The translations under genes were made by a program, and so were the position numbers. Positions 3,513 to 54,966 of a stretch of DNA of 64,000 bases are shown piece by piece; position 1 is the first letter of the stretch, and each line of letters begins with the position of its first letter. The notes under the pieces were generated by a model. It did not search any database and had not been told where the DNA came from. It was given only the letters and a program-made list of their open reading frames with translations. Origin of the DNA: Eledone cirrhosa (lineage: Eukaryota); the NCBI GenBank assembly GCA_964016885.1, contig OZ024740.1, positions 323,020,001 through 323,084,000 on the forward strand, written 5' to 3'.

Positions 3513-4517
3513 CATGTATGCATTTCTCACATGCAAAGCAGCGTTTTAACATGATATATACTTAATAGACCCGAATGACGTGTGAGACAAGAAATATACA
3601 TAGACACACATATCTATATATGTGTGGGCTTATCATTCTCGGAATGTATTTATATGTATCTGCATATACGTTCTGGATGTAAGCCGAAGTCAAGATATCT
3701 GTATTTATATATGTCTATGTGTGTTTGTGCCTGTGTGTGTCTATGTCTATTCGTGTCTAAATATGTGCAGGCCTATGTCCATGTATAGATATATATATGC
3801 ATGTATTTGTAAGTGTGTGAATATGTATATGTATGCATGTAAATGTGTGCGTCTATGGGTGTATATCAATACGTATACATTACCTGTAGGTATCTGTGTG
3901 TGTGTGTGTACTTTCTCGGAATCCAACCAAAGTAAACACTAACCAACATTCAACTGGGAACCGTTTACATTTTTTTTTATTGATTTTTATCTCTGTTCAA
4001 CAACTAAGAAAATATCAGATATAAAATATTCGCTCAGTTTTAAGACATTTCATTCAAAAGTCTATATATAATTATGTTTTGACATGTTCTTAACACATTC
4101 GATTGAAACTGCTGTTTAAAACAGGCTTTCATTTAAAACACTGCCATACAATGACTTCATATCACATCGTAATAATGGGAGACGGAGCACTAATAACAAC
4201 AACAAAAATATGATGATCGAAGTAGTAATAATAATAATGGTGAAAATAATAATAAAACATAACAATAATAATAATGTTTTCTTTATTAACCACAAGGGTT
4301 TACATAAAGTAGACATTAAGGACAGTACAGGACAATACAGGACGGTACAAATGGGCATTTCTGCGTGTAAAAAACAGAGGATGAAATAAAATACCAAAGA
4401 AAAATTCCCCAATAGGGGGGAGACTTCCGAGGGACATTTGTGGAGAAAGCCCAGTAAAAGGCCACAGTGACCCTGACCACCAAGGCAAGTGCCCTCTCCC
4501 AGTTTTCCACCTTTAAT

Positions 4518-7500
4518 TTACATACACATACTCAGAGTAGGCCCATTCACTCGGGCCATTCTTGCTTCTCTCACCCATCTTTCAACAAAATGCTGGGAAG
4601 AGAGCACTTCCCTCTCTACTCTGATTTTCCTTTTCAAATGAAATTTGAAAAAGTCAATCAGGGCATCACCGAAGAGGTAAGTGCTCGTCTTCAGCCCTTT
4701 CAAACGTGTCCACCATACTATCTCTTTCGCCATGGCCACCAGACAGATAAAAACTGCCTGCCCTTCCCAGCTAAAGGAAGAGGGCGGGGCAATCCTCACG
4801 ATGGACTCAGATGATAGCTGGATCCGTCCTACACGCGACAGCAGGTGTTCGACATAAACCCACAAGTCAGCAATTTTCGGACACTGGACGAGTGCGTGCA
4901 GGACGGTTTCGTCGCCCTGCGCGCATCTCGGACATGCCCGGCTGACGGCATCTCCATGCCTGTAGAGTTTATCCCGAACTGGCAAGGCTCCTCGGTAGCA
5001 CTACCAGGCCAGAGATTTCTGGAAGTTGTCCATAGGTCCCGGCCCGAAAGTTCTTCCGAAGAGAATGGCTAGTAGATTTTCGTCGACGCCTAGAGTTTCC
5101 CCAAGTACGTCGTCGCTCTTCCCCTCCACTAATACTCTACAGAACGCCGAGGTGGAGTTTCCACTGATCACATTGCCCGATTGGTCGAGGGCTGTGAGCG
5201 CTTGAAGACATTCCAGTCTCCAGGCGCTCCCTCTCGGTCTTCGCTTGACCCAGGACTGCAGCTCCGTCAAGGAAACGAGCTGGGGAAATACGTGTCTAGC
5301 AAACGGCGACCACACCTGATCACCGTCGAGGAAGAGGTGGAGATGTCGTAGCCTGAGCACGTGTCTGCGCATCATCAGCCACAGCATGCCCATCCCTCCA
5401 CGTAGCGAGTGTTGACAGCAGATGGACCGCCTGACCATCGGAGCGCGTCCCTTCCACAAAAAGCGAAAGAGCAAACGCTCCAGCGCAGTCAGGCGGGGCT
5501 TAGGACAAGGTACGACGGTCAGGCGGTAGCAGATGACAGACGCGATGTACGCGTTAGCCACCTCCGCTCGACCTTTCAGGGATAGCTTGCTCTCCGCCCA
5601 TTTCTGGGTAAGAGAAGCCATCCTGCTCGTCACCTCGTCCCAGTTTTTGTCCGTCTGGAGGTCCGGACCGAACCAGACCCCTAGCAATTTAACCGGTCCG
5701 TCCGTCCAGCGTCCGACGACGCTGTTGGACGGCATGGACCTGCCTCTCCAGGTGCCGAGCTGCAGGCCCACTGACTTTTCCTGGTTGATCATTGCTCCTG
5801 TCACCGCTTCGTATTCTCTTAGTGTAGTGCCGATCGCCTCGATGTGTTTGGCGTTCGCAACCACTACGGTGATATCGTCCGCATATGCTGACACGGATCT
5901 TCCGCATCCTAGTTCGCGCGGGACGCCCCTCAACGTCTCCAGTTTGTGCAGTAATGGCTCGAGAGTCGATACGTACAAGAGGAAGGAGAGCGGACATCCT
6001 TGGCGGACCGAGCGGCGCATGATGTTGAACGGTTCCGAAAGGTGACCGTTCACTCTCACCACAGAGCAGATGTCGCTGTGCATGGCAGCGATCCAGCCTC
6101 TGAAGACTGGCCCAAAGCCAGCCGCCCTCAGGACTGCCGCTAGGTAACGATGGTTGACCCTATCGAAAGCTTTCGACTGATGTAAATTGATCAAGGACCC
6201 ACCCGTGCCAGGTTCCCTAGCTACACTCTCTACGATGTATCGCATGAGGTGGAGGTTGTCGTGGATTGATCTGTCGGGAATGGCGCATGTCTGCGCCTCT
6301 CCCACCAGACCACCAACGACAAGCGCCAACCTCTTTGCTAGCACCTTGGCCAAAATCTTGAACTCTGTGTTTAGCAGAGTTATGGGCCTGAAATTATCTA
6401 TGTTATCCCCTTTGTTCGGATCCTTTCTCAGCAGTGCCACCGCCCCTCGGCTCACAGAGCTGGGAATTCTCCCGTTCTGTTGCCAGTTGCAGTAGACGTC
6501 CGCCAAGAGGCCTCCGAACAAGTCTGGCATCTGTACGTAAAGTTCATAGGGCAGACCATCCAACCAGGCGATTTACCCCTTGTGCAGTCAGTCATTGCCT
6601 CCCGTACTTCAGCGGCTGTTATCGGCTTTTCGCAACACTCCGCCTCAGTGGCCGAGAGCCGCGCCAGTCCGTCGAGGTAGACACTAAAGTCCATCCCTCG
6701 ACCCAGCCCACCGCTGCTCCCGAACAGCTGAGCGAAGTGTCGCTGAAAAGCTTCACACATTTTCCCGGGATCGAGTAGCATGCGCCCGTCGTGGTCCACC
6801 AAAGACCGGATCGTGGCTTTGTTGCCACGACGCGCTTCCGCCACTCGGGCCCATTGAACGGCTTTCGTCCCCTCGTGTCTGAGAGCACGCACCCTAGCCC
6901 TGACAACACAGCCTTCGTGCTTTGCATTGAAGAATTCGTCAAGGGCCAATTTTGCCGCAAGCACGTCGTTCGCGATGCCTTTGCTAAGCGCCTCGTCTAA
7001 TTTTCTAACTAGTTCTCCCTCTGCTCTATTTTTCTCTATTGCTAAAGCCTTACTAAACCTAATGGATTCTATTCTAATCGCCCTTTTTAGAGCAAACCAC
7101 CACTTTTTGTTGACGATGGCCCCCGTCAACGCCCGCTTAACTAGTTCGCTAATCCGGTCTCTGTAGGCCTTGCGCGCTGGTAAGGACGCGTTTAGCTTCC
7201 AGTAGCCGGGACCTCGTCTATGAGGCCTATCTAAGTCAAGCACGCAGATCACGAATTTGCGGTCCGTGTAGCTGACTATCTTGAATTGTGGACAGCCTAT
7301 GCTAGACCTATCTATTTCCCTACCAAATACTCTATCTAGATATGATCTGCATGACCCTATGCGATTTGTCCAAGTCCACATTGGCACATTCGGGAAATCG
7401 AATCGGTACCTGTCAGACAGTTCAAAACGCCTGAGTAGGTTGGTGAGGCTCTTGCACCCTCCACCCCTATCCGCTAATCCCACACAGTCCGAGCGTGCAT

Positions 7501-7938
7501 CTAAGATCCCTTTCCAGTCGCCCACTAACACTAAAGAGAGGGGCGTTCCAAGAAAGGTCTCCAGACACCGGAAGAAATCAGGCCGCCCTGCTCCTGTCGG
7601 GGCATAGACGGCCACTAGCCTGAAAGCTTGCCCGTCTCCGCTGATCACGTCCAGCACCACCAACTTACCCTCTGGGTCCAGGAAGATGGCCCGTATGGTG
7701 AGATCCAAACCTCTCCTAAAAAGCACAGCAACTCCTCCCCCGATCCAGGACGGCTGGGAGATGCGTACACATCGTAGCCGCCGAAGATCGGTGCGAAGGC
7801 CCGTGCTTCGGAGATTCTGGTCTCGCTGATGACCACTACATCTATGTTTAGTGACCTGAGGTCGTTGAGCAGGTGACCCTGTTTCCATGACGACCCCAAG
7901 TCACGCCGATTTATGCTGCCTATTCTGAGTGAGGTCAT
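4518..7938 (-). pseudogene. Tx1 LINE ORF2: APE endonuclease, reverse transcriptase and C-terminal zf-RVT-like region, disrupted
   Basis: APE motifs (IGSIN, VVISET, LVGDW, SYLDRVF, YTDR), GPGYWKLN, RT motifs (FRPITLLN, KAFDRV, VRQGCPLS, AYADD) and CPRCAQGDETVLHALVQC. Split over four ORFs by frameshifts and stops. Confidence 0.93.
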
Positions 7939-7973
7939 GTTTAAAATGGAGTAGAAAAGATGGGAAAGACCAC

Positions 7974-10154
7974 TTACCGTACTTTTCGTAGAGGAAGGAT
8001 GGTTTCTCCATCCCTTTTCACTTGATCGTCTGGTGGAGGGACCGTTGAATCGTCCCTTCGGCTGCTCGTCGGCTCTTCTATGAGTATGTCCGAATATACT
8101 CTCCGGTTGAGAGTCCCTCCTTGGTCTCTGAAATCACCAACTGCGTTGGGGAATTTCGTTTTAATGTTTGTGTATTGTTTCTGTGCTATTTTTACCAGTC
8201 TTATGTTCGTTGGCGTTTTGATTGGGGCTGGTATTATGTAGTCGTGCTGTGAAATGTCTGTGTGTTCAATTATGTAAGTCATTAGTTTCTTGTTGTGTGT
8301 ATTTATTGCCGTGCATTTGTTTTTCTGGGGGTGGGGTGTGGTTCTGCTATTTTCTTGTCGTTGTTGCTGGGTGTGTGTGTTTTGTTGTTGTGTTTGCGAT
8401 GTTGGTGCTTGTGGTGGTGGTGTTGAAGGTGTTGTTGTTGTTGGCGGTGGGGTTGTCGTCGGTGGTGATGGTGGTGCTAGTGTGTGTCGTGATGATGTTG
8501 GTGATGTTGCTGCTGTGAGTCTCTTTGCAGTAGCCTTTTCCCTTTTTTAATTTCTTTCCTCCCTTTTCGAAGGCGACGATGCGCTGCTTCTGCGTGTGTG
8601 CCTTCTTGCGACCTTTTGCCATCCCTCTCCCACCTCACACTCCATGTTCGATTCTGTGAGGTCGGGGAGGGGTACCAGCTCCATTCTTTCACTTGTGGTT
8701 GTTGGTGATGTTTGCAGTGGAGTCTCTGTTGCAGCTGCATTTGGTATTACTGTTGTTGTTGTTAATACTTCCACTGCCGCTGCTGTTCTTGATTTCCGTG
8801 GCGTGGGTATGGGTGCCACGGACCTATCATTCCTGGTTGCTGCTTGTCCTGCTGCTGGTAGCCGTGGAGTCGGTTTCGGAAGGAGGGGGTTTTCTTCTTT
8901 CTCAGGGTCTTCTCGTTGCAGAAGGCTCTGAGGTGAGTCTTCAATCAACAACGTAAGCAATTCGGGTGTTTGCCCTCAACACTTATGGGCAGTTGAGTGC
9001 CGTTATCGAAGTCTATCACATCCGGGATAGCTTCGATGCACTCCTGGTTGGTTTGGATTAACATCTCAATGGAGGTGCCGACCCAATCTTCTCTTACTTT
9101 TTTCTGTACTTGCAGTACAGTTGTTTTGTCCTCGATTCCGACGAGGACAGACGCGACCAGCGAAGAAGGGGCTATCCCGGGGGGGACGTGGGTCAGTTTG
9201 ACCCTCACAATTTTTTGCTCGCAGTAGGAGGGCACCAACACCATTTCCTCGCTCCTTAGGGTCACTAAGGATTGAGCCTTTGCCTCCTGGGGTGTGGCAA
9301 AAAGCACGTCTACGGTGGCATATTTTTTTGCCTCGGGTGATATGCGTTTTCCGCTGCCACACAGACCCTAAGGCTTTTTGTATTTGAGCCTCTGTGGCTC
9401 TTTCAACCCTACGGGATTTTGTGCTTACTGTACGGTACGTGACCGTACAGTGCTGTTGGGTTTCGAAAAAATTTTCGGCTGCCTTGCAGATTGCTCGGTG
9501 TCCGGTTTTCGTCACCATCTTCTTCGCTTCCTGTAATTCCTCATTTGTTATGAGGATGGTTTCCAGGTTCTTTGCGATACCTGCAAACGAGATTGGTTTT
9601 TCTTTGCTGCTGTTGTTGTTGTTGTTGTTGTCGTCAGAGCTGCTGTTACTTTTGTTGTTGCTGCAGGTACTACGACTACTGCCGCCGCCGCTGTTGCTGT
9701 GGTTGTTGTTGTTGTTGCTGCTAATGCTGTTGTTGTTGCTGTTGCTGCTAATGCTGTTGTTATTTATGGTGCTGCTGATGCTGTTGCGGCTGCTACTGTT
9801 GTTTTCCTCGTTACTGTTGCTGCTGCTGCTGTTATTACGGCTGCTACTGCTATTATTCATGACGTCAGACGAATGAAATGGGTTTTCGTATTTACCGCAC
9901 ACCTTTTTCGTCGTTGTCGTCGTCGTGGAGAAATGTTCCATGTTTTGCACGTGATTTTGGAAACTATTTTTCTTTACTGGCGTCGCTTGCGAAAGAGAAG
10001 GGAGGGAGAGAGACACATTTAGAGAAGGGAGGGAGAGAGACACATTTAGAGAAGGGAGGGAGAGAGACGATCTTCTCTCTGCTGTAGTGAGGATTGAGGA
10101 AGAAGAATACGGAATGAGTGGGAGTGACTTGTGAAAATTCTTTTTCGTAGCCAT
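7974..10154 (-). pseudogene. Tx1 LINE ORF1 (gag-like nucleic-acid-binding protein), frameshifted and with a premature stop
   Basis: Starts MATKKN at 10154. N/S-rich low-complexity region, then SFAGIAK. Zinc knuckle CLRC*LKTHLRAFC is split by an in-frame TGA (ORFs 8945..9307 and 8762..8944 are contiguous in frame). Homologous to ORF1 of copy 2 (CFLCGETTHLRAFC). Confidence 0.85.
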
Positions 10155-10446
10155 GTTTTTTTTGGGGTTTAAAATAAATATTGGGCACAAAACCCCAATA
10201 AGCGGTTATTTAACCCCGAAGGGCCAAATAACGGGCAGGAAGACCCCTCTCACGAGGAGGAGGGTGTTTTTGTCTACAGTTTGGTTAAAGTTTTAAACAA
10301 TTTACAATTGTTATATCTGTCAAAATTTACAATACCTTACAGAGCCGAGCCTCCGTCAACCATGGCATTCAATAATAATAATAATAATGTTATAGCAAAT
10401 AAAGTCGTTTCATTGTTTTCTTTCTTACTTACATTATTCATTAAGT

Positions 10447-10624
10447 GTGGATTGGCAGTATCGGTAGAGGGTCGGACGCCATGCTTTCCAGCATAGTTAC
10501 GTCCCTTTACGATCTGAGTTCAAATCCCGCCGAGGTTGACTTTGCTTTTCATCCTTATGGGGTCGATAAAATAAAGTACCACTGGGTAATTGCTGGCCTT
10601 GTGCCTAAAGTAGAAACAATTATT
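10447..10624 (+). mobile_element. tRNA-derived SINE, family A
   Basis: A-box-like TGGCAGTATCGG, B-box GTTCAAATCC, body TTTCATCCTTAYGGGGTCGATAAAATAAAGTACC, tail GGCCTTGTGCCTAAAGTAGAAACAATTATT. 14-bp TSD ATTATTCATTAAGT. Confidence 0.92.
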
Positions 10625-10730
10625 CATTAAGTAAAGATTGAAAAGAAAAGTTGAAAAGAAAATATTAAATAAAACAACAAAATAAGACACTATACATAAA
10701 GAAAGAAACATAAAATGAAATAATGCTGAA

Positions 10731-11598: not shown

Positions 11599-11802
11599 AT
11601 AATAATAATAATAATTGTGTCTACTTTTGGCACAAGGCCAGCAATTACCCAGTGCATTACTGGTACTTTATTTTATCGACCCCGTAAGGATGAAAGGCAA
11701 AGTTAACCTCGGCGGAATTTGAGCTCAGAACGTAAAGGGCCGTAACTCTATCCTGCAAAGCATGGCGTCCGACCCTCTATCGATACTGCCAAACCGTCGC
11801 CC
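11599..11802 (-). mobile_element. SINE family A
   Basis: Reverse complement of the same head, body and tail, with an (AAT)n tail on the plus strand. Confidence 0.9.
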
Positions 11803-12699
11803 TGCCAAACCAACAACCATAACGACGGAAACAACGACAGCAATAACAAGAATAACAACAACATTAACATCAATATATATATATATCAACAACAACAACA
11901 ATATTACCAACATTCTTATCATCATCAATAACAACAATAACAACAACAAAAACACCATTAACAACAACAGTACTAACAACATTCCTATTATCATGATCAA
12001 TAACAACAATAACAACAAAAAGCACCATTAACAGCAACAGTACTAACAACAAGATGGACGACAATATTTGAAGCAACAGTTACGATATATATAAACATAA
12101 TATTCTGAAAGCTTAAAAAAGAAAACAAAATAAAATGAGCATAAACGAAAAACACACAGAAAACACGCAAAACACACAAAACACACACACAAACACACAC
12201 ACACACACTCTCTCTCTCCCTCTCACACACACACACAGACACTCACAGGAACACACAAACACAGACAGACACATACACACAAGCACGCAAACACACACAG
12301 ACAGACACGGAGGCGCGCACACACTTAAACCGAGAAGCACACACAAACAAACACACACAGAGGCGCACAGACACACACACAGAAGCACACTGACACACAG
12401 ACACATAAACACACAGACACACACACATACAGGCATACACTTACACACTCACAGACACAGAAACAGATATACACACTCATACAAACACACAAACACGTCC
12501 ACTCAGGTACAAACACACATACAGACACAGACACACACACACTGATACAAACACACACGCTCATGCAAACACACACACACACTATACCCCCCCCCCATAA
12601 CACAGCTAACACACACAAACACCTAGAATGTACTATCATCATTTTTATTGCTGATGTACTTCAGGAAAGTTAAACAGTTAAAGACCTTGAAAGCTTTTA

Positions 12700-19400: not shown

Positions 19401-19952
19401 ATACTTCAAACAATATACTTACTAATATCATTTCTAATTTTAAATCTGACAATTATAAACCTCTCATTAATTCACAAGACATTTAAAACTACTTTCATTA
19501 TAGGAAACAACAAATTTTATGCGTTAATTCTAAGCAAAAACAAAACATAACAATAAAAAGTAGCTATAATTACAGTGACTGGGCATTATTATAGTCATTT
19601 ACGTCCGCATAACTACATATAAAATAAAAAATGTTCTTAATGTTTCTTAAGCCAACCGAATGCTTACACTTCTAGTTACCTGCATAACATCTAAACGATG
19701 GAAACTAGTCACCAAGGATATTGTAACGTAATCGTTAACGCGTTCAAACAGAATCCGAGAAATGGAGGGTTCTATTCATCCTAGAGGCCTAAGTGCATAT
19801 TTTCCCTTCTTAAGGATTACCTGACCAAATTTCTCAACTATTATTTAGAGTGATCGACTATTGATATTGTCGAATATTGTTGTTGGGACAATATTTCAAT
19901 TTTTCCCATTTTTCTTCGAACAATCGGATGCTCGCATTATTATCACATTATA

Positions 19953-20328
19953 GGGCGATGGATTGGCAGTATCAGTAGAGGATCGGAGGCCATGCTTTCC
20001 ATCATAGAGTTACGTCCCTTTACGGACTGAGTTCAAATCCCGCCGAGGTTAACTTTGCTTTTCATCCTTACGGGGTCGATAAAATAAAGTACCAGTAATG
20101 TACTGGTGAATTGCTGGCCTTGTGCCAAAATTAGAAACAATTATTATCGCATTTGCAGTACCAGTAGAGTGCTTTGACGCATAGAGTTAGGGCCCTTGCC
20201 ATTCTGAGTTCAAATCCCGCCGAGGTTAACTTTGCTTTTCATCCTTACGGGATCGATAAAATAAAGTACCAGTAATGCACCACTGGGTAATTGCTGGCCT
20301 TGTGCCAAAAGTAGAAACAATTATTATG
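19953..20328 (+). mobile_element. Two head-to-tail SINE family A copies
   Basis: Copies at about 19953-20146 and 20154-20328. The first has TSD ATTATTATC(A/G)CATT. Confidence 0.92.
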
Positions 20329-20961
20329 ACTGTTTCAACAGGAGAAAGCCCAGTGCTAGGGAACCTTTGCAGAGTTCCCGAGATTTGAGGAAGAAGGGGG
20401 AGAATGAAATATATCCTTAAATCACATTCAGCATAAATTCTTGCAACAGATGATATTCCGCTAAAGGTATCCAAGAAAACAGGTGGATTTGTAAACCGGA
20501 CAACGGATTAAGTTTACCACCCGAGTAGTCTACAGTAGGCTTTCAAAGCTAAACCTCTTAGAAGATTAAACCTATAACCACATGTGTGGGAAGGGAGTAT
20601 TTTAACCACATGAGTATGTCTGCTCCAGATATGTTTATGTAATTTACTCTCATTAAAGATTGATTTAAACATAATTATTTGCATTATCTCATTTATGTTT
20701 GACAACTGTTATAGGCTATGTCTGTTTTAATTGTTCTTTCACTTATCTACTAACAGAATATATATTACATAGCATGATATATACTTACACATATACATAT
20801 GTATTATATATATTGTATGCATATATATTTATGTAAATATATATATATATCTGTGAGTGTACATATACATATGCATATATAAATGAATAAATATAGATCT
20901 ATAGTATATTTATATGTATACATACATAATATATACATATTTATACAAATACATGTGTATA

Positions 20962-29584: not shown

Positions 29585-30151
29585 GTGTGTGTGTACGTGA
29601 GCATGTCACCATGCGGAGATTTGCCCCTACACATCATTAGTATTTGTGATTGGAGTTGAACGCAACACTACAAAAGTAATGCGATATTCGGAACATACAT
29701 AAATGTATATTGGTGTGTAAATGGCACAAGCATGGCTGTATGGTTAAGGCGTCTGCTTTGCTAGTGTATGGGTTTAGGTTCAATCCCACTGCAAAGAACC
29801 TTAAGGAAGTGTATTCTACCAGAATCTTATGTCAACCAAAGCCTCGACAGGAAGTGTAAAATGACCGGTCTAACAAAGCCTTTGAAATAAAAGATACAAA
29901 TAAAGAGAATGACAGCACATGCACAAACATATACACATACACACACAAACACACACTGCACGCGTCGTGTGTTAAATCTAAAAGAATCACATCGTGGGAC
30001 AGTTATTCTAACCATTGTTGTATATGTTTAGCCTGTGATGTGATCTGAGATTGTGTGTTGTATCTAAAGCAATTATAACGTAGGAAAGTGATTTTAGTCA
30101 TTCAAACACACACAAACACTGTTAAATACGTTTTATATTTATTATTTATTA

Positions 30152-30315
30152 GGGTCGGACGCCATGCTTTCCAGCATAGTTAAGGCCCTTTACGATCTGA
30201 GTTCAAATCCTGCCGAGGTTGACTTTGCCTTTCATCCTTACGGGGTCGATAAAATAAAGTACTAGTAATGCACTGGGTAATTGCTGGCCTTGTGCCTAAA
30301 GTAGAAACAATTATT
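30152..30315 (+). mobile_element. SINE family A, 5'-truncated
   Basis: Same body and tail. TSD ATTATTTATTA at 30141-30151 and 30310-30320. Confidence 0.9.
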
Positions 30316-30470
30316 TATTATTTTCGTATTACAACTTCCATTGAATTGTCGGCCATGAATGTAAAGTTAAAAGATTTTCTGTGGCTTAAATGCTTCATCC
30401 TTGCTGTACACACACACACATATATATATATATATGTATCTATGTAAATATATTTATATATGTATATATA

Positions 30471-34026: not shown

Positions 34027-34075
<49 letters not shown>

Positions 34076-34076
<1 letters not shown>

Positions 34077-37000
34077 AGTTGCATTTATCTTGCTTTATGT
34101 TCATACGAGTTATCACCGAGTCACAACCAGTGACCTCAAGAGACAACAAGGTCCGCCATGTTCAAGAAAGAACATACATACTCACACATGCATCTTTAGT
34201 GTTTAGACTTGTGATGTACTTATATTGACAGAATCTTCCTTAGTATATGGGCAGTTCCCATTAGTACTATCTTTTGTATTTCTCCTATACGCGGGTTTCC
34301 TGGGATTTGCGATAAGTAATCATTAGACCCCTTAGGTATCATTCCCAGAGCGCCTACAACCACTGGTATTGTTTTAGTTCTCAATTTCCACATTTTTCCA
34401 ATTTCTATCTCCAGGTCCTTATACTTGCTCAATTTTTCAAATGTTTTTATAGATACATTCTTGTCTATTGGAACAGACATATCAATTAGCAGGCATACCC
34501 TCTTTTTAAAGTCCTTCAATATTATATCAGGTCTATTTGTATCTATTTTTCGGTCTGTTTGGATGCTAAAGTTCCACAAGATTGAGATGTGATCTTTTTC
34601 AAGTATGGGAGGTGGTTGATGCTCCCACCAATTCTTTTGATGGGGCAGGTCAAAATGCTTACACATTATCCAATGTATGTATTGTGCAGCTCTGTCATGC
34701 CTGTTTAGGTATTCGGTTGGAGCTATAGGACTGCACATTGAAATTATATGGTCTCTGGTTGTTTTTTGCATACACGGCATAATGGGCTGCTTCCATTTTT
34801 TATTATGTTGGCTTGGTAATTTTTTGTTGGCAGACACTCATCTTGTGCTGATATAATCAGTCCTTCAGTCTCCGATTTCAGTCCAGAGGATGCCAACTAC
34901 TGATGGGTTAAAGTTTTGTCAACATCAGGATTGTTAGCTCGCTCTGGGTATTTTCCATACAGAGGCTTTTCTTGCCATTTCTTAGCCAATTTCTGTAGCA
35001 GTTCTTTCTTTGCAGTTACTTTTACCTGCTTTGCTTTTTCTGTGTTTTCCATTTCAGCAGTAAATGGGACTTCTGAAATTTGTAGTCCATTACTGTATCT
35101 TTGTGCATCTTTTGTAATGGAATATGATCTTTTGATGCTTTCGTGTTTCAAAACGAGTTTGATCATCCAATCATGTGATTCCCTTAGATATGTAGATAAT
35201 CCAATTGTTGCAGTTTTCAACGCAATGTCTAACTGGATTAACCCACGTCCTCCTTCTTTCCTAAGGAGATATATTCTATCTATATCTGCCTTAGGGTGAT
35301 GCATTCTGTGCATGGTTAAGAATTTTCGAATTTTTGTATCGAGCCTACGGATCTCTGTGATGACCAGTTGATGACATTGTAACTGTAGGTTACTACTGGT
35401 ATGGCAAGCGTGTTTATGGCATCGATCCTATTCCTTGCATTCAATTCCGTTCTTAAGATTGCTCTTACTCTGCGGTAACATTCCTTCCTTATCCTTTCCC
35501 TCATTGTCGAGTGCTTGATTCCGTCTCCTTCACAAACACCTAGATATTTGTAAGTTTTTTCTTGATCAAGTTCTCTTATCACGTTCCCCCTATCAAGATT
35601 AATGTCTGAACTCTTCAGCAGCTTTCCTCTGTTGAACGTTGCTTTGGCGCATTTATCTAGTCCAAACTCCATTTTAATGTCATCACTGAACTGCTCCACA
35701 GTGGATAATAGCCCTTGCAATTGTTCATCATTTTTTGCAAATAGTTTCAGGTCATCCATGTAGAACAGGTGATTAATGGTTTTGTCATAGACTTTATATC
35801 CATGTTTTGTTTCATTGAGCATTTTACTTAATGGTATAAGTGCGATGCAGAATAAAAGCGGCGATAAAGAGTCACCCTGAAAAATTCCACAATTAATATT
35901 AACTTCTCCAGCTTCCAGTGATTTTGTTTCACTATTCAAACGGAGTGTCGTTTTCCATGTCTTCATACTGAATGACAAAAACCTCCTGACAACGGGGGAT
36001 ATTTTGAAAATCTCTAAACATTTTTCAATCCAACTGTGTGGCAAGCTATCGAATGCTTTTTTATAATCTATCCAAGCAATCGATAGATTTTTGTGTCTAT
36101 TATGACAATCTTCCAGTATCATTTTGTTAACCAGAAGCTGATCCTTACAGCCATATGAGCCTCGTTTACACCCTTTCTGCTCAATGGGAAATAGGTCATT
36201 TGTTATCAGGTGGTCATATGTGTATTCAGTTAGGACTGATGTTAAAATTTTATACATTGTGGTCAAGCAAGTTATCGGTCTGTAATTTTTGCGATTGTTT
36301 GTCTCATCATTCTTCGGAAGCAGGAATGTAATGCCGTTAACTAGCCATGATGGTATCTTTTCTGGCTCCTTAACTATTTCATTGTAAAGTTGGGCTAACA
36401 GCTCATGAGACTCTGTGAAGGCATTTATCCAAAAGTTTTGTATTTTGTCTTTTCCTGGGGATTTCCATTTGCTGTTTTTTCTTAGAGCCAAGCGCAACTG
36501 TTCAACTGTTATATTTTCCCATATTTGTTCCTCAAGGTGAGCTGTATCTTTCATTTGTCTGTCTATCCATGGGGCATGTATGTTATGACCTTTTTCTTCG
36601 GCCCAGATCTTTTCCCAGAATTCTTGCACTTCCTCCTTGGGTGGTATTGATTTAGCAGTTATTGTTGACTTACCAATTTTTCTGTAGAAGTTTCTTTGGT
36701 TGTTTTTGAACATATTATTGTCCTTATAGAATCTAGATCGTTTTTCAAAGCGCCTTATACGAACAGCTTTGGCTGACACTTTTTGCTTGATTATTTCTAT
36801 CAGCATGTCTATGTCACATGTTAATTTTATACTGTACTTTTTTTTCAATTTTCTAAGTTTAGTTTGTTTAACATGTTCACCTACTTTATAGTTTGTTAAA
36901 ATTTCTATGTCAGATCGGAGAAGGTTTATTTGGCGATTGATGTTCTCTTGCCAAGTAGATTTCTTGTGGGAATTCCTTTGTTTTTTCATCTTCACTCCAC

Positions 37001-37960
37001 ATAAGTGAGTGGTGACTTTAGCCGATGCATAATAGAGATGATTTAAATCAGTAATGTTTAGTTTGTTTGTGATGATAATGTTTTTGAGAATTATGTTAGT
37101 CTTGTGTATTATCTTTTGGTTCTGTTTGGAGTTCTGGATCTTAGGGAGGGTGTCTCGTTGCGCCATGTCAGATTCTTTCATTTTCATCCATTCGATCATA
37201 ATTTCATCCTTCAAGTTGGCAAGTTCATTCTCATTCATTTCTTTATCATTTACGATCTCATTATTTTCATTTGGAGTTTCATCTTGAGCATGCACTCCCT
37301 CCACTTTTTCGATCCTTTCTTTAATTTGTTCTGTTGCCAGTGATTCCGCCCCAACCCTGGGATTCGAAGTGTTACAATTTACCTCGTTTTCACTGACACA
37401 TGTTTCATTTTTCCCTTCGCTGACTTTGTGCTAATAGCTTGATCAGATCAATTTCTATATCAGTTAGTAACTTTTTTCTTACAATATTTCTTCGTATATT
37501 GGCTAGTTTGTTACTGTCAATATAGCCTCTGTTTTCGGGATGTTTCTTTTTCCAGTTGATATATGTCTGTTCTGTATTCGCTGTATTTGATGGGTAGTAC
37601 ATGGCAGTGTAGAAAGCCTCAAGGACTTCTTTATTATCTTCCCTTGACCATTTCTCTATCTTTTTCTTTGGATTTCTTGGTGGTGAGCATGGAGGGCCAA
37701 CAGTAGGAGTATTCCGGTTATGGGAGGTCTCCAGCTCCGAAGTGATGGGAAGGTTTGAACCATTAGCTGATTTTTCGACCCCAGTCTGGTTCCTCTCTGA
37801 GGGACGCGGCCCTTTTTTACCCGGGTGACGGCCGATCCGGTATGAGATTTTATCATTAGACATTTACTATATTTTGTCGCGTTTTATCCTTATCCGCCAA
37901 GGGGTAATCATTTCGTGTTACCACTTCTAGAACGAGTGTCAACCAAGACCATTATTCAAC
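34076..37960 (-). mobile_element. R4/Dong-clade RLE non-LTR retrotransposon (element A), full length, decayed
   Basis: Single long RT-zinc finger-RLE reading frame broken into four pieces. Flanked on both sides by (TAA)n on the element strand (34027-34075 and 37961-38003), the known target of Dong elements. Confidence 0.92.
34220..37863 (-). pseudogene. Dong/R4 ORF (RT plus restriction-like endonuclease), frameshifted
   Basis: KWSREDNKEVLEAFY N-terminal motif, WKSPGKDKI, YRPITCL, WIDYKKAFDS, GIFQGDSLSP, LFYMDDLKLF, RHD, RPDIILKD..LIDMSVP and EKLSKYKDL. Confidence 0.92.
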
Positions 37961-38003
37961 TATTATTATTATCATTATTATTATTATTATTGTTATTGTT
38001 ATT

Positions 38004-41000
38004 CCTTGAATCTCAGTCATTGATGTTGGTTAACTGGAAAGTCCGTTGGATTGAATATCAAGCCACTACCTGCAGCCTCAGATATTCAGGACGTATCGGA
38101 GGGTTCTTGCTGTTCCAAGCAAGCATGCCTTTTGAAGCGTTCCAAAAAGCGTGAAGGGGCCGATTTTCTTTAACCATCCCTGGAAACCTTTGGAGATAGT
38201 CCCCAGTGCGCCTATGACAATCGGGATCACTTTGACTTCATGGCAGTTCCAAATCCTTTTCACCTCCCACTTTAGGTCCTGGTTAATTTTCTCCCTCTCC
38301 TTCTCTTGCACTCTCGTGTCGAACGGGCAGGCCACATCCACAATCAGGCACGATCTTTTTTCTTTGTCCACAACCACCAGGTCAGGTCTATTGTGCTCCA
38401 GTTTTTTGTCCGTCTGTATCCTAAAATCCCACAGCACCTTCACCTGACTGTTCTCCATCACCGCCTCTGGCCTATGCTCATACCATTTCTCAGAATGTGG
38501 TAGATTGTTTACTTTGCACAGGTGCCAGTGGATCACCCTGCCCATCACATCGTGTCTCCAGCCCTTATAGTGGGTCTGGGCTAGGTGTTTACACTCGGAC
38601 ACAATGTGAGCCACAGTCTACTCTCTCTCTCCACAGATCCTGCACAGTGGGCTAGCCTCCTCCTTGTAGATATGGTGCTTCAACCACTTCGTTTTGAGGG
38701 CCTGCTCCTGCGCAGCCATTAGCATTCCTTCTGTAGCCTTTTTGAGGTCTCCTCTTCTCAACCAGTTCCATGTCTGTGGATCTCTAAATTCAGTTTTCTC
38801 AAAGAAGGTACTATGAAGGGATTTTCCCTTAAGGCTGCTCTTCCTCCTTGATGTTATTTCCTCCTTGGATATCCCCTGGCCTACTGTCCCCTCCTTCAGT
38901 ACAGCTCTGAGCATTGGCTCCTTACTATAGGTCACGTATTTGTATAGGTTGTTTTTCTCCATCTGAACACAGTCCTCTATGCTGATAAGACCTCTTCCAC
39001 CCTCAGATCTCCTTAGGTAGAGTCTATCGACATCACTCCTCTTGTGGAACATGTTGTAGATAGTCAATAGCTTCCTAGTCTTCCTATCCATTTCTTTTTG
39101 TTCAGCAACATTCCATCTCAGAATTCCCGCACTGTACCTAATAATAGACACAGCTCGGGAATTTACTGCGCTTATGGCATTTCTGCTGTTCAGATGTGAC
39201 TTCAATACGCTCCTTACTCTCCGAATGTATTCAGTTCTTAACAATTCCTTCATTTTTTTGTTCTTTATGCCATCAGCCTCCAGAACGCCCAAATACTTGT
39301 ATCCTTCCTCAGAGTCAATTTCCTTTATCATCTCACCTGTTGGTATCTGGATCCCGTTACTTCTGCTCAACCTACCCCTCTTCATCACAATGACTCCACA
39401 TTTACCAATACCAAACTGCATACATATATCACTGCTGAAAATACGGACAGTGTCAACAAGCACATCCAACTCCTTCTCACTTTTCCCGAAGAGCTTAAGA
39501 TCGTCCATGAAGAGGAGGTGATTGATGGTAAGCTCTCCCCTTCCCAACTTGTATCCTGCTCTCACTTTTCGCAGCATAATGGTCAAGGGCATCAGGGTAA
39601 GGACAAACAACAGAGGGGACAGGCTATCTCCCTGGAAGATACCTCTCTTGATCTTCACGCTTCCCAAGGATACTCCAGTTGATGTCAACTCTGTCTCCCA
39701 GGACCCCATACTCCTGTCCAGCAACTGTCTGATGTTATCTGCCACCCTGAAGATCTCCAGGCTTTTGGTGATCCAGGAATGAGGCACCATGTCAAATGCC
39801 TTTCTGTAGTCTATCCATCCCATGGCAAGATCAGTGTGTCTCCTCCTGCAATTCCCCATTACCATCTTATCAATAAGCAACTGGTCCTTTGTACCACGTG
39901 ACTTCTTTCGGCATCCTTTCTGTTCGTCCGGTAACAAGTTGTTTGTGTGGAGGTGATGGTAGATTTCCTCAGACACAATGCTCGTCAACAGTTTCCACAT
40001 TACGGGCAGACATGTGATAGGTCTATAGTTGGTAACATCATTACCCTTGATTCGGTCTTTCATTATCAGAACTGTGGTACCTTTTGTCAACCACTCTGGC
40101 ACCTCACCCGACACCAAGCAGTCATTGAACATGGCCGTCAGCTTCGGGTGGAGGGATGTTAAATGTTTAATCCAATACCCCTGCACACCATCTGGGCCTG
40201 GTGATTTCCAGTTGGTTAGTTTTTTGGCTTGCCCCTTAAGAGTTTCAACTGTGATACTCAAATCAGTCTGTTGTTGTGCCTGCTCACCGATCTCCCTCTG
40301 TACTGTCTCAATCCACCCTGCCTGGGCATTGTGTCTAACATCCTGCTCCCATATTCCTCTCCAGAATGTTTTAGCTTGTTCCGCCCCAGGGATCAAGTCG
40401 TTGCCTCTTTCTTTCCCCTCAAGCTGTCCAAACAGCATCTTCTGGTTGTTGTCGAACATGCGGTTCTGTTTATACTGACTGACTCTGTTCTCGTATCGCC
40501 TGATTTTGGCACTCTTTGCTACAATGCGTTGCTTCAATTCCTCTATGATAATATTTAGCTTTTTACTCCTAGTTTTGTATTTTATTTCCAGTCTATTTTT
40601 AGTGCCTATGTTTTTTAGTGTCCCATTCAGTAGTGACTCAAGCTTTCCTATGTCATTTCTCATTTCCCCGATTTGCCCACTCAGTCGCTTCTTCCACCAC
40701 GGCTCTGCTCTTTCTTGTCTGTTGTTTCCTCTCGCTTTTATACCAAGTAGTTTCCTCACCGTATTTGCTGTTGCTTTGAGGATATTGTTGCACTGGTGAA
40801 GATTCCTCGCCTCAAGGTATGGGATGACTTTGTTTACCTTAGCTGTTGTTTCTTTTAACTTTTTCCTGTCTACAAATCTTAGGTTCATAGGTCTCCCACT
40901 ATCATTGTTCAACTCATCTACCACTAAATTTAGGATGTCAACCGAATCTTGTCCTAGCCCGTCAGCATTCATCTCCTCAGTGGCCGTATCTCTGTTCCAG

Positions 41001-41580
41001 GTATTATTTATCTCAGTATTCAGATCATTGTCTGCTTCGGGTGGTTCCTCCGTTCTCAGGACCTCCTCACCTTCATTTCCCACCGGCTCGCTTGTCTGGC
41101 ATACTACACCCGCCATCTCCAAGCCATTCTCTCTGCTCAGTTCCTCCAGTTCCAGCTCGCTTATCCACCCATTAGTTCTTATTACCCGAGCCTGCCCGGC
41201 CAATTTTTGTTCATCTAATTTAAATAAACCAATCTCGTTCCAGATGTTATGCATCCGTCTCCTGTAGCCCCTCTCCTTGGGGTTACTTTTCAGGTAGCAT
41301 TGCATAACAGTTCTATTCAATTCTTTCGTCCAGTTGGTTCTGGCCCCTTTCCTTCTTCTTCTTCCTCCAACATCAGCAGTATTTGGTTGACAGTCAGGTT
41401 CCTGCTGCTGAGCCAGGGGGCACCTGTTGGGTGAGAGTCTGTCACATGACGTTCTAGTCTCCATTTCACCGTTATTCGAACTGTTTATGTTCGATATTTA
41501 AACACTCTTATCGAGGATTGGCGAATGTATGTTTACATAGCCATCTGTGGATCCGCCATCCCACTTGGCCCTTGTGTGGC
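38004..41580 (-). mobile_element. R4/Dong-clade RLE non-LTR retrotransposon (element B), near intact
   Basis: Its 3' (TAA)n tail directly abuts the 5' end of element A. The 5' boundary is approximate. Confidence 0.92.
38078..41464 (-). pseudogene. Dong/R4 ORF, about 1128 codons, with one in-frame TAG
   Basis: A 948-aa ORF (GIFQGDSLSP, LFMDDLKLF) ends CRICGERE* and continues in frame as TVAHIVSEC...RHD...RPDLVVVD..IVDVACP. Confidence 0.94.
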
Positions 41581-42523
41581 ATTATCACCACGCTGTATAC
41601 GAACACACATAAACAAACAAACACACGGGCAGAAAGGGCCCCAAAAATGAATAAGCATAAGTTTCATTGTAATGTAGCATTCGAATGTCTGACTTAGTTT
41701 TTGTTTTTTAAGTTTTACTTTTTCCCCCCTCTTCTCTGTCCGTCCGCTTGCTTCTCTCTTCATTCTTATTTTCTTTACGTTTTTGGGGTTTCTTTTTTTG
41801 TTTTTGTTTTTCTCTGTTTGTTTTTCTCGTTTTTTGCTGTTGTTGCTGTGCTGCTTTGGTTTTGTTGTTTGTTTTTTCTTTTGAGTCTATCTATATATTT
41901 TGATGCCTTCCTCTTTGTTAGTAGTAGGAATTCTATAATGTGGAAGTGGCAGCCAGCAGAGACTGGCGGCGTTGGCGATACTGAGACAGTGGTGGTGGTG
42001 ATGTCGATACCGAGGCAGTGGTGGCGGTGATGCGACCGTATTACTGTAGTGATGGTGCTGTAGCGGTGGCAGCAGCAGTGAAGGAGTCAAGGGGTGGTGG
42101 CGGCGGTGATGGGATAGTGGTGGTAATGATGGCCGTAGTGAGCGGTGGCGGTGAAGGTGAAAATGCTGTTGTGTTTAGTGTACACAGATGATGGGGTGGG
42201 TGGTGTATCTAGTTTCTGGTGTTGGTGAGTTTAGCTGTCCTATATAGTGTAGCCAGAGGAGAGGAGGGGGGGGGGGTTCTTCTTCTTCCATTTATAGCCA
42301 TTTTTTTTTTTTGATATACAGTGTACAATACAAAGTTGAATATTTGAATATTTGAGCCTTATAACAATATATTTTGGGTCCGAATTTTTTGGGGCTCAAG
42401 CCGGGTGCTTTACGTAGCATTTGTACTAAGAGTTGTTATTTCACAAATGATTTAAATATGTTAAAAATTCAAAACTTACGGGTGCGATTTCATGACCTCC
42501 GTCACCTCGTGCGTCTTCTTCCC

Positions 42524-42566
<43 letters not shown>

Positions 42567-42777
42567 GACGAAAGTGGATGTACGTTTTTTGAAGCTCCGT
42601 GAGTAAGCAATTTTTTGAGGATTAATTGTGGAGAATTGTTTATTTTTTGTACCGCTGAAGCATTATAAGACATTCATTTGTATCCTGTGAAGGAATAACT
42701 CATAATATTTGGGCCTTTTGGCCCAAATATTTGAACTTTATTTTGGAAAAATAATAATTTTTTTTTCTCAAAAAAAC

Positions 42778-44695
42778 ATGGCGGAGCCACGCCCCCTAGA
42801 GGCGGGTCTGCTGTCGTGCAACGGCGACTTGAGCGTTGAGAGGAGAGGTGGGGCGAGGAGCGCCACCAGCACGAGTGTGAGCAGCGACAGTGCCAGCACC
42901 AACGGGCCGAGCGGCGCGGAAGGTGGTAACAGCGACAACACCAACACCAACAAGCCGAACAGCGCAGAAGGTGGTAATAGCGAGAGCACCAACAAAACGA
43001 ACAGCACAGAGAGTAATAGTAGCGACAGCAGCAGCACCAACAAGGCCAACAGCACAGAAGGTAACCACAACACAGGGGAGAACAACAACAGCAATAGCAG
43101 CAGCAACACCAACAAGAACAACAACAGTGACAACACCAACAAGAACACTTTCGCTGCTGTGGCAGCGGCTAAAAGGAGACCATGCTACAGCATCGACTTA
43201 ACCAACAGAGAGGAAAAGTTGGCCCAGGCCTGGAAAATCATAAATCAAGAGCAGACCTGGGCAAACTTAAATGTCCCGGCAGAAGCCATTGCGGCAGTGG
43301 AAAAAAGAACGGTGCATTTCAGATGCATCTCAGTAGAGACAAAGAGGGCAGCGATAATCGCCCAAGCTGATATAGAAGCCGCACTGAAATACATCAGAGA
43401 GGACACAGACTTCATAGAGAGGGGCAGGCAATACGGCACCGTTTCGGTGCTGTTCAAGTCTGAAGCCCTCGCTGTGAAGCATTCAATGACCCCTTGCAAA
43501 ACCAGCAAGGTCATAATGTACCCCTCCCACATGGGAAAACGAATAGCACGTGTGCGCATTCCCAGGATTCCACCAGGACTTGATATGTGGTGGCTCCTGG
43601 GTTGCGTAATCGTGGAAGGAACGGATACAGTCCCGGTAGAGGCAACGAGAACTGCCAGGGACGACTGGTCCGGAGTTGATCTGGAGATACTGCTCCAAAT
43701 CAGACCCGAAAACGTAAAAGCAATCCCGGACCACATCCGCCTCCAAAACGGGAGGGTGTTGCATATAATGACTGAGGGCAAAAGGCCGCATTGTTTCCTT
43801 TGTGGGGAAACGACACACTTGCGAGCCTTCTGTCCTCAACTGCCGAAAAGCGCAAGGGGTCGAAAGATTCCACTGCTGGCGACGCCGGGACAAGGACCAC
43901 CAGCAACACCGTCAACAATGGAACCACCAAAATTGCACACCCAGGGGGGAAACGAGGAAAGCTCTCCCATTCCCCCCCCCCCCCCCCAAAAAAAAATACA
44001 CACACGAACAAGAACATAAACACTCACTCAGACACAAACACGCTCACAGCCACAGACCCCTCATCCTCCAGCAGTGAAGATGAGGGAAAACCAAAGTCCA
44101 CCAAAATACAAAAAACAAAACACAAAAAAAAAAGAAATCCACAAAGCACAAACACCCCCACAAAAAAAATACACACACCACCCACACAAACATTTTCCCC
44201 ACAGCATCACCAACACAACCACCAAAATCCCCCAAACGCAAACAAGCTAAACAGACACAAGAACAAATAGACACACAAACATCAGAAACTACAGACACCC
44301 CACCCACATCAAACGCAGACACAATAGAAACAACACTAACAAAGCTATCACCACCACAATCACACGAACAAATAAAACCCGAGCAGCAAAACATTAAAAA
44401 CTTCGTGCTTGCCAGAAGGGCCAACAAGGAATTGATGGCCCATGTAGCACGAAGCACAAACATCGAAAAAGAGGGGGAAACATTTGAAGCGAGCACATTT
44501 CGCGTACCAGATAATTTGCTTCTGATGCGAATGTCGCTCGCTTCATACAAAGAAATTCGAAAGAGCTTTCCTCGGGATGTGGGAACCCCGAACGTAAAAC
44601 CCACTTCAAGACTATTAAAGGGGTTCCCAAAAGAAACCCCACAAACCATGGAGGTCGAACCACCCGACCTTCACAAGACCCCGGAAGGTAAGTAA
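42778..44695 (+). pseudogene. Tx1 LINE ORF1, frameshifted (at least near the C/A homopolymers at about 43972-43995)
   Basis: MAEPRP start in AAAAAACATGG context, N/S-rich repeats, TFAAVAA and CFLCGETTHLRAFC knuckle. The last segment ends PEGK* just before ORF2. Confidence 0.85.
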
Positions 44696-44724
44696 ACCTT
44701 TCCTCTCCCATTCATCCTGCCAGC

Positions 44725-47251: not shown

Positions 47252-47522
47252 GCTGGTGAATTCGAGAAGGAGAGGGGTGCCCTTCCCGGGTGCCCTAGGA
47301 GCGTCGGGTGGCTCAGGACTGGTGGGGTGCTTGAGTCAACCCTGGGTGGTGATCCCTCTTATTGGGGAACTTTCATTGTTGTATTTTTATTGTTATTTTG
47401 TTTTTTTGTTATTTATACTTACTCGATCTCTATGTAAACCCCCACTGTCCCTGTCTATTGTGTTGTCCCCTATATGTCGGCCCTTGTGGCCAATAAATGA
47501 AATCATTATTATTATTATTATT

Positions 47523-47647
47523 TATATCTTCATTGTTAAATTAGTCTTGCACTTTTACTCGACCTTATTGTAAACCCCACTGTCCCTGTCTTTGTATTGT
47601 CTCCTACATGTCGGCCCTTGTGGCTAATAAATGAAATCATTATTATT
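47523..47647 (+). mobile_element. Second, 5'-truncated 3' end of the same Tx1 family
   Basis: TGTAAACCCCACTGTCCCTGTC...GGCCCTTGTGGCTAATAAATGAAATCATTATTATT repeats 47432-47513 with several substitutions. Confidence 0.88.
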
Positions 47648-47812
47648 GCTTTGACGCATAGAGTTACGGCCCTTGCCATTCTGAGTTCAAATCCCGCCGA
47701 GGTTAACTTTTTCGTTCATCCTTACGGGGTCGATAAAATAAAGTACCAGTAATGCACTGGGATAATTGCTGGCCTTGTGCCAATAGCAGAAACAATTATT
47801 ATTATTATTATT
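47648..47812 (+). mobile_element. SINE family A, 5'-truncated, directly after the Tx1 tail
   Basis: B box, body, tail and (ATT)n are present. Confidence 0.9.
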
Positions 47813-48484: not shown

Positions 48485-49240
48485 AACCCTAAACCTAAAC
48501 TTAACCCTAACCCTAACCATAAACCAAACATACCCTTACATCTAACACTAAGCCAAACCCTAACGCTAACCCTAACGCTAACCCTAAAACTAACTCTAAA
48601 CCTAACCGTAACACTAACACTAATATTATGTCAAAACCGAAACTAACACTAACTCTAAACCTAACCCTAAACCTAACCCTAACCATAAACCCCAAACCTA
48701 ACCCTAACCATAAACATAGCCTTAACCCTAACCCTGACCGAAACATAACCTTAACCCTACTCCTAACCCTAACCCTGACACCAATGCTAATCCTATCCCT
48801 AACTCTAACCCTTACCTTAACCCTAACCCTAACCATAACCATCAACTTAACCTTAACGCTAACCCCTAATCCTAAACCTAACCCTAACCCCAAAACTTAC
48901 CCTAACCCTAGCACTAGCTCTTATCCTAAACCTACCCTAACCCTAACCTTAACCCTAACGCTATCCCTAACCTTAACCCTAATCCCCAACCCTAACACTA
49001 ACCTAACTGTATCCCTAACCCTAACACTATCCCTAACCCTAACCACAGTGCCTAGCCTAACACGCCCCCTAACTCTCAACCTGACACCAATACTAACCCA
49101 AACTCTAACTCAGACCAACCCCATCAACCCTAACTCTAACCCTCACTCTAACTCTAACTCTAACCCTACCGCTACCGCCAATACTAACCCTAACCCAACC
49201 CGATATCAGCCAACCCAACCTCACCTAACCCTAATGCTAA
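48485..49240 (-). repeat. Degenerate interstitial telomere-like (TTAGGG)n tract
   Basis: About 750 bp of TAACCC units with many variants (TAACCA, TAACTC, TAACAC, TAAACC). Confidence 0.92.
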
Positions 49241-54881: not shown

Positions 54882-54966
54882 TGGGAAACTATAATAGTGA
54901 TAATGATAATGATAATTTGTTTTATTTGCCCAAAGGGCATCAGATGGAGAAGTATGATGCATTCCG

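Follow-up and report, generated by a model that had tools for sequence, protein, structure and literature searches.

What directs a long interspersed nuclear element (LINE) and a short interspersed nuclear element (SINE) of a cephalopod to the same ATT repeats, and do the two use one machinery? The question is raised by a 64-kb stretch of Eledone cirrhosa contig OZ024740.1, referred to here as the window, from which all element counts below are taken. An initial annotation of this DNA had quoted four target site duplications (TSDs), one of a LINE and three of SINEs, and had read their common ATTATT start as implying sequence-specific nicking. Here, we report that the association of these elements with ATT is far beyond chance, that LINE and SINE have a predicted 3' hairpin in common and that their copies stand in same-strand arrays. 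We propose that the protein of the second open reading frame (ORF2) of the LINE mobilises both LINE and SINE into ATT sites via the common hairpin, a combined model to which we assign a probability of roughly 0.65.

ATT repeats at the insertion sites

The elements with the four quoted TSDs lie as follows:

4276-10369, minus strand: LINE copy 1, full length, with a 5' untranslated region (5'UTR) of ~210 nt, ORF1, and ORF2 with APE endonuclease, reverse transcriptase (RT) and zf-RVT
4263-4275, minus strand: 3' TSD copy of LINE copy 1, (ATT)4 G
10370-10388, minus strand: 5' target tract (ATT)6 G of LINE copy 1, with the 5' TSD copy at 10370-10382
10433-10632, plus strand: SINE 10447-10618 with exact 14-bp TSDs, hairpin at 10594-10606
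19936-20334, plus strand: two SINEs in tandem (19952-20139 and 20154-20319) with three copies of one ATT-led site
30141-30320, plus strand: 5'-truncated SINE 30152-30309 with 11-bp TSDs

On re-reading the window sequence, all four pairs were found where they had been placed. The TSD of LINE copy 1, ATTATTATTATTG (10370-10382 and 4263-4275, minus strand, 13/13 identical), is pure (ATT)4 plus G and lies within the 5' tract (ATT)6 at 10371-10388. Its G may be the first base of the element itself, since LINE copy 2 likewise starts with G after its tract. The two copies around SINE 10447 (10433-10446 and 10619-10632) are identical at 14/14 positions, those around SINE 19953, as the element at 19952-20139 is called here, at 13/14 (19936-19949 and 20140-20153), and those around SINE 30152 at 11/11 (30141-30151 and 30310-30320). 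The second SINE of the tandem starts directly after the 3' TSD copy of SINE 19953 and has at its end the 19936 site for a third time, in a more diverged form (20320-20334). That ATT was present at the target before insertion, as had been claimed, is borne out by SINEs 10447 and 19953, because in both of them the upstream ATTATT recurs after the element together with non-repeat bases. The LINE TSD alone is no proof of this because it is pure microsatellite. Extension of the SINE TSDs into unique sequence, a further claim of the initial annotation, holds for the same two SINEs; the TSD of SINE 30152 consists of A and T only. As a control, the flanks of the six free-standing SINEs were cross-paired. 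The six own-pair scores were 14, 11, 11, 8, 8 and 1 and the best mismatched score was 11; only the TSD of SINE 10447 (14) exceeded all mismatched pairings, and those of SINEs 19953 and 30152 (11 each) tied with the best of them.

A 3'-end profile combined with an ATT census gave 19 ATT-tailed 3' ends (15 SINE and 4 LINE) in the window, and 15 elements have both ends, which were set by eye from our alignment A1. In the 20 nt upstream of these 15 elements, the sense strand contains ATTAT in 13 cases and exact ATTATT in 10 (window background 3.5% and 1.3%, respectively), and the antisense motif occurs in none. The statement that all TSDs start with ATTATT was thus correct for the four quoted pairs and too strict for the window as a whole. 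Eight elements are free-standing in the sense that their upstream flank is not the tail of another element; ATTAT is present in the upstream flank of seven of these (P about 5e-7 relative to AT-matched windows) and ATTATT in that of five. Half of the eight form the discovery set of the initial annotation, and in the four outside it ATTAT was found in three and exact ATTATT in one. Directly after the element, exact ATTATT follows 15 of the 19 3' ends. In the three youngest free SINEs (10447, 19953 and 30152), the 3' side adds no ATT beyond that of the target, which fits initiation at the first tail repeat. Three other cases have fewer ATT units downstream than upstream, as fits a nick inside a longer tract.

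A predicted 3' hairpin common to LINE and SINE

The LINE 3' ends that were compared with the SINE belong to LINE copy 1 and to these features:

4288-4300, minus strand: hairpin predicted for the 3' end of LINE copy 1, with stem AACC/GGTT and loop CTTGT; AATAAA comes next
42525-42566, plus strand: 5' (ATT)14 tract of LINE copy 2
42567-47504, plus strand: LINE copy 2, followed by (ATT)6, hairpin at 47479-47491
47540-47812, plus strand: LINE 3' fragment (~47540-47638) and 5'-truncated SINE (47648-47794) behind copy 2, each followed by ATT repeats
55263-55493, minus strand: LINE 3' fragment with degenerate hairpin, in a ~125-bp tandem repeat unit

The ends of the SINE and of the L1/Tx1-type LINE align over the last ~28 bases, and a hairpin of 13 nt with a CTTGT loop and a covarying 4-bp stem is predicted for both. 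The stem reads TGGC/GCCA in the SINE, where the outer pair is often lost, GGCC/GGCC in LINE copy 2 and, as listed, AACC/GGTT in copy 1; in the fourth LINE end, at 55 kb, the hairpin is degenerate. The window has 18 CTTGT loops that are closed by at least 3 stem pairs. Twelve of them are these element 3' ends (9 SINE and 3 LINE), at which the ATT tail follows 16-18 nt after the loop. In a stem test with 14 rows, for which the structure was chosen from the same sequences that were tested, 87.5% of the cells were paired and three of the four pairs had changed on both sides; control stems slid along the rows reached at most 55% of paired cells. The last 28 nt of the SINE scored above 99.7-99.9% of random window stretches when compared with LINE copy 2 and the 47-kb fragment and above 97.7-99.5% when compared with copy 1 and the 55-kb fragment. 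No match was seen between the SINE end and the ends of the two LINEs of the window with a putative restriction-like endonuclease (RLE), for which 34-86% of random stretches scored as high. With a homologous end and what appears to be a conserved stem-loop, the LINE and SINE have the 3'-end features of a stringent pair, in a comparison that covered this APE LINE and the two RLE LINEs. Because of this common hairpin the LINE is likely the partner of the SINE, and the assumption of the initial annotation that both use one machinery gains support from it.

Identity of the LINE

Both LINE copies are broken, copy 1 by frameshifts and stops and by the substitution of two APE catalytic positions, and copy 2 by the deletion of about 0.9 kb of the RT region. 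The APE frame of copy 2 (44725-45606, plus strand) keeps the catalytic positions when aligned with the human L1 endonuclease; as annotated earlier, the domain is encoded from 44725, where an ATG opens it. Pfam Exo_endo_phos, RVT_1 and zf-RVT were matched across the two copies, intact relatives carry all three, and the best solved-structure matches of the APE domain were human L1 ORF2 and L1 endonuclease chimeras. On these matches the LINE is placed among the L1/Tx1-type non-long terminal repeat retrotransposons (L1 clade in the broad sense). With 72-79% DNA identity over ORF2 and 67% identity of their endonucleases, copies 1 and 2 represent different subfamilies.

An ORF1 with a CCHC zinc knuckle is a feature of the Tx1 clade. 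In ORF1 of copy 2 a CX2CX4HX4C knuckle, which is not diagnostic of Tx1 by itself, is visible in the translation; a Pfam search of this ORF1 gave no match for it. The closest named protein to the LINE is from Argonauta hians (68%), and a cuttlefish protein has 48%, which points to an octopod as the likely host; no relative named Tx1 was found among the protein relatives and cluster look-ups. In a quick tree of 44 rows, from which 3 short hits were dropped and named Tx1, Kibi and human L1 references are absent, copy 1 has Argonauta and unnamed proteins as its neighbours (SH-aLRT 99), within a lineage of 17 rows (100). Tx1 is a likely label for the LINE. A scan of viral contigs and genome contigs with the LINE protein gave no confirmed locus.

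Both full-length LINE copies (2/2) have (ATT)n on either side, and ATT follows the LINE 3' end in 4/4 cases. According to the Kojima criterion, a Tx1 family is target-specific when the target is found in >20% of flanks (PMC4494074; here and below, literature is cited from partial texts, for which the comparisons hold). The flanks of the LINE lie above this value, at a very small n.

In each of the four LINE 3' ends, AATAAA precedes the ATT tail by 3-7 nt (4282-4287 on the minus strand and 47492-47497 on the plus strand in copies 1 and 2), and no poly(A) has been copied into any of them, which fits internal initiation at AUU repeats. A possible 5' part of a third L1/Tx1-type element lies at 41700-42523 (minus strand), head to head with copy 2 across (ATT)14. 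The stretch leftward from 42523 has an A-run and ATG, and 1 of 300 shuffles scores as high against the 5'UTR of copy 1. One protein that is 65% identical to the C-terminal half of the LINE (P0415) is filed under a bacterial metagenome-assembled genome, likely as a result of host contamination.

The SINE

Two further SINEs stand outside the arrays described below:

11616-11803, minus strand: SINE with (ATT)6 tail
55976-56203, minus strand: older SINE 55989-56188 with decayed TSD, the upstream copy of which starts with ATTAT

The SINE appears to have a tRNA-like head and to be of CORE type, labels that derive from box-like stretches and a shared centre. An A-box-like stretch and the B-box-like GTTCAAATCC are visible in alignment A1 when it is read against what we take to be the box consensus; ARAGORN found no tRNA in the SINE, and Rfam gave no match on 10300-10700. 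The central stretch of ~40 nt, presumably the CORE domain, is common to repeats at 121 loci of metagenome contigs, which have several different 3' parts, match the central segment only and belong to other SINE families. One SINE used as BLAST query gave 22 matches within the window, and scanning viral contigs and genome contigs with the SINE pattern yielded 0 further copies in each. Older SINEs (50851-51069, 54358-54565 and 55989-56188) have an extra segment of 20-30 nt before the hairpin that is lacking in younger copies. The SINE accordingly falls into two or more subfamilies, which agree in hairpin and tail.

Same-strand arrays

Thirteen of the 19 3' ends lie in four head-to-tail arrays on the same strand. 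The smallest, at 19.9-20.3 kb, is the tandem of two SINEs listed above, and that at 42.6-47.8 kb consists of LINE copy 2, the LINE fragment and the SINE behind it. The other two are:

50810-51639, plus strand (50.8-51.6 kb): five equally oriented SINE units with ATT-led spacers between them
54358-54898, minus strand (54.4-54.9 kb): three equally oriented SINE units, their ATT-led, TSD-like spacers decayed

Of seven spacers upstream of array members, six are 6-15 nt long, which is the length of TSDs, and start with ATT or TATT; the seventh has 26 nt. The spacer at 51461-51469 recurs exactly downstream at 51631-51639, one site is present three times (19936, 20140 and 20320) around two SINEs, and the units of an array differ in subfamily and truncation. 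Arrays of this kind would arise by repeated insertion at the same ATT site.

Insertion model and its alternatives

From the observed TSDs, strand bias, arrays and shared covarying stem we infer how protein binding, nicking, annealing and the order of insertions may be connected. The ORF2 protein would bind the CUUGU hairpin of LINE or SINE RNA and introduce a nick into the bottom strand, immediately 3' of AATAAT. The first AUU repeats of the RNA could then pair with the exposed AAT end and prime reverse transcription, with copying beginning at the base before the tail. With another nick at a distance of 9-16 nt, a TSD would result that starts with ATT. Since each new copy would end in ATT and thereby provide a fresh target, same-strand arrays could build up. 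The process would be analogous to the pairing of the L1 poly(A) with a T-tract, with AUU/AAT replacing A/T. Two LINE subfamilies with 67% identical endonucleases are both flanked by ATT on both sides. The initial annotation had named nicking at AATAAT and/or annealing of AUU as explanations; the ATT target itself stands, endonuclease specificity and annealing are not separated by these data, and sequence-specific nicking is likely rather than proven, as no significant target-side signal was seen outside the ATT overlap.

A number of observations weigh against the combined model. With 4 bp the stem is short, and in 5 of the 14 rows the outer pair does not form; the covariation amounts to about four independent events, and the common end, in a comparison that covered the LINEs of the window, is shorter than 30 nt. 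The older TSDs are weak, two of them (score 8) not being above the best mismatched score. SINE 11616-11803, with (ATT)6 as its tail and with neither a TSD nor upstream ATTAT, is a clear exception. Three elements (11803, 47648 and 51275) have more ATT on the 3' than on the 5' side and need tail copying or later slippage. Among the free SINE sites there was no significant base preference left of the nick: a pyrimidine precedes the tract in 5/5 (P 0.11) and a C in 4/5 (P 0.02, post hoc). The endonuclease hairpin loop, nearly identical in both LINE copies and different in their nearest outside relatives, is not conserved beyond what 67% identity predicts, and the possible third LINE 5' end at 42523 is preceded by AAT on its own strand. 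All this comes from one window with 15 elements, whose ends were placed by eye and for which there is no orthologous empty site. Flank searches at 8 sites gave an empty paralog only for the 55-kb LINE fragment, and the evidence from it is mixed. This fragment, which has no TSD, lies inside one unit of a three-unit tandem repeat; of the two empty units, one has ATAATTATT, an imperfect ATT run, at the matching point and the other has no such run. As support for an ATT target, the empty units appear weak at best.

The same pattern could in principle come about by annealing only. The endonuclease would nick A/T-rich DNA loosely, only AAT ends that pair with the AUU tail would be extended, and the RNA tail rather than the enzyme would set the apparent target. 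It is in keeping with this that every conserved base of the target is on the side of the nick that matches the tail, without significant bias at the base before the tract, that two ATT units suffice as a target (SINE 10447) and that tail-dependent TSD starts and 3' overlaps are described for L1, CR1, L2 and RTE (PMC6007223). However, the overlap here is 6-9 nt, as compared with several bp in L1 and one or two bases in animal RTE (PMC6007223), the reuse of one site to the base (19936, 20140, 20320) favours a contribution of the enzyme, and endonuclease-driven targeting in Tx1 provides a precedent (PMC4494074). We consider annealing without enzyme specificity unlikely.

Distinctly improbable in our view is that an RTE, CR1 or L2 LINE ending in ATT moves the SINE and that LINE and SINE converged on ATT independently. 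The same loop, the same spacing to the tail and the compensatory stem changes speak against convergence, as does the SINE stacked directly in the tail of the LINE fragment (47638-47648), and the only other LINEs of the window have TAA tails on the opposite strand and no such hairpin. What favours a different driver is the shortness of the common end (<30 nt), the activity of RTE and CR1 families in octopus (PMC13282606) and the finding that most known SINE partners are CR1 or RTE elements (PMC3747384). Finally, the pattern could be passive, with elements surviving or clustering in ATT-rich DNA, arrays formed by template jumping or local duplication and TSDs produced by the accidental similarity of ATT tails to A/T-rich flanks. 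The window is indeed rich in microsatellites, and neither the two older TSDs nor the pure-ATT TSDs rise above cross-paired flanks. Yet the TSD of SINE 10447 matches at 14/14 positions including non-repeat bases, the strand bias is strict (13 versus 0 of 15), and the excess of upstream ATTAT has a P of about 5e-7 when AT content is matched. Moreover, the units of an array are of unlike subfamily and truncation, and spacers are found again downstream as TSD copies (51461-51469 equals 51631-51639). A passive origin is therefore very improbable.

Relation to known systems

Microsatellite-targeting Tx1 elements and TSD starts that match the RNA tail are known, and the mechanism itself is of a known kind. 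The targets of Tx1 elements comprise (TC)n, (TTC)n, (TTCC)n, (TTTC)n, U2 genes and transposons (PMC4494074), and ACAY, AC, TC, TTC and, for Dong, TAA are given as targeted microsatellites (PMC3812793). The Kibi, Koshi and crocodilian Tx1 families resemble the LINE described here in that an APE LINE has a microsatellite on both sides. Vertebrates are their hosts and (TC)n, (TTC)n, (TTCC)n and (TTTC)n their listed targets (PMC4494074, PMC3812793), whereas the motif here is a sense-strand ATT of which as few as two units may be enough, in a cephalopod host and with a SINE that has the same target. Comparable in this last respect are SINEU and Tx1-Mar of crocodilians, where a SINE shares its target preference with a Tx1 LINE; SINEU mobilisation by Tx1 was inferred from shared targets, and SINEU-1 is described in the available text as lacking a LINE with the same 3' end. 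SINEU elements have snRNA heads and poly(A) tails, in contrast to the tRNA-like head, the ATT tail and the 3' hairpin common with the LINE found here (PMC4494074).

As to the hairpin, zebrafish L2 (PMC4176376) and the maize elements ZmSINE2/3 and LINE1-1_ZM (PMC3747384) likewise have a conserved loop, a covarying variable stem and a short distance from hairpin to terminal repeat, and zebrafish L2 ORF2 binds its stem-loop (PMC4176376). The partners in these pairs are L2 or plant and algal L1 elements; covarying 3' hairpins are described, and only 3 SINEs with L1-clade tails were counted, those in the accessible rows being from maize or Chlamydomonas (PMC3747384). The accessible parts of these two sources do not describe the zebrafish and maize pairs as microsatellite-targeting. 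In human L1/Alu (5'-TT|AAAA) the TSD also starts with the bases of the RNA tail and the nicked strand can pair; there a poly(A) meets a T-tract and RNA recognition is relaxed, whereas here an AUU/AAT repeat is combined with a predicted hairpin (PMC6007223). The concordance of tail and TSD start has been set out in the same source together with both explanations for it, which are non-exclusive. L1-Tx1, Dong-R4 and tRNA-CORE SINEs occur in octopus, with neither targets nor partners given in the accessible text (PMC13282606, PMC8967140). By description only, the SINE reported here resembles the octopus tRNA-CORE SINEs OR1 and OR2 in what appears to be a tRNA-like head, in a central segment that SINEs in other genomes also have and in its likely octopod host; for OR1 and OR2 the text available names no partner LINE or target (PMC4824008, PMC4758252). 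In the literature searched, which did not include Repbase and most subscription papers, there was neither an ATT-strand target for an APE LINE nor a SINE/Tx1 pair with a shared hairpin. The new points would be the ATT target and the hairpin-sharing SINE partner, both resting on one window.

SINEs make up ~11.6% of the Octopus vulgaris genome (PMC13282606), and tRNA-CORE SINEs are a main part of the octopus SINE complement (PMC8967140). We put forward tentatively, at slightly less than even odds, that a major octopus tRNA-CORE SINE family is moved by a Tx1-type LINE through stringent recognition of a CUUGU hairpin and that this pair targets ATT motifs. If true, the pairing would name the enzyme behind one octopus SINE family, explain the pile-up of copies in same-strand arrays at ATT repeats and represent an animal L1-clade LINE with a shared-tail SINE. 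Self-targeting would build SINE arrays and seed ATT microsatellites genome-wide, and the pair and the Dong-like RLE elements would be competitors for one microsatellite, on opposite strands. With a 6-nt target, a 13-nt hairpin and a short tail, the system would be a compact one for separating endonuclease specificity from RNA-DNA pairing.

Neighbouring repeats

The two RLE LINEs mentioned above stand in tandem at 34027-41700 (minus strand), the second beginning directly behind the tail of the first. From their motifs we take them to be Dong/R4-like: RT is followed by a C-terminal CCHC and PD..D motif, their RTs are ~50% identical to each other, and they have (TAA)n tails. No APE match was obtained with Pfam and no hairpin end of the CTTGT type was found; given CCHC and PD..D and no APE match, their nuclease would be different from that of the LINE. 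They use the same microsatellite as the LINE/SINE pair on the opposite strand. The TAA-targeting Dong belongs to this trinucleotide class as well, with TAA on its sense strand and hence on the strand opposite to that of the pair (PMC3812793). As drivers of the SINE the two Dong-like elements were rejected, in view of the opposite-strand TAA tail and the lack of 3'-end similarity.

At 55120-55680 (minus strand) there are three tandem units of a dispersed repeat of ~125 bp, the middle one of which holds the 55-kb LINE fragment; other copies of this repeat lie near 16.3, 26.6, 52.2 and 58.0 kb. Just beyond the LINE/SINE nest, a degenerate (AACCCT)n array of ~120 units, telomere-like in sequence, extends from 48485 to 49201.

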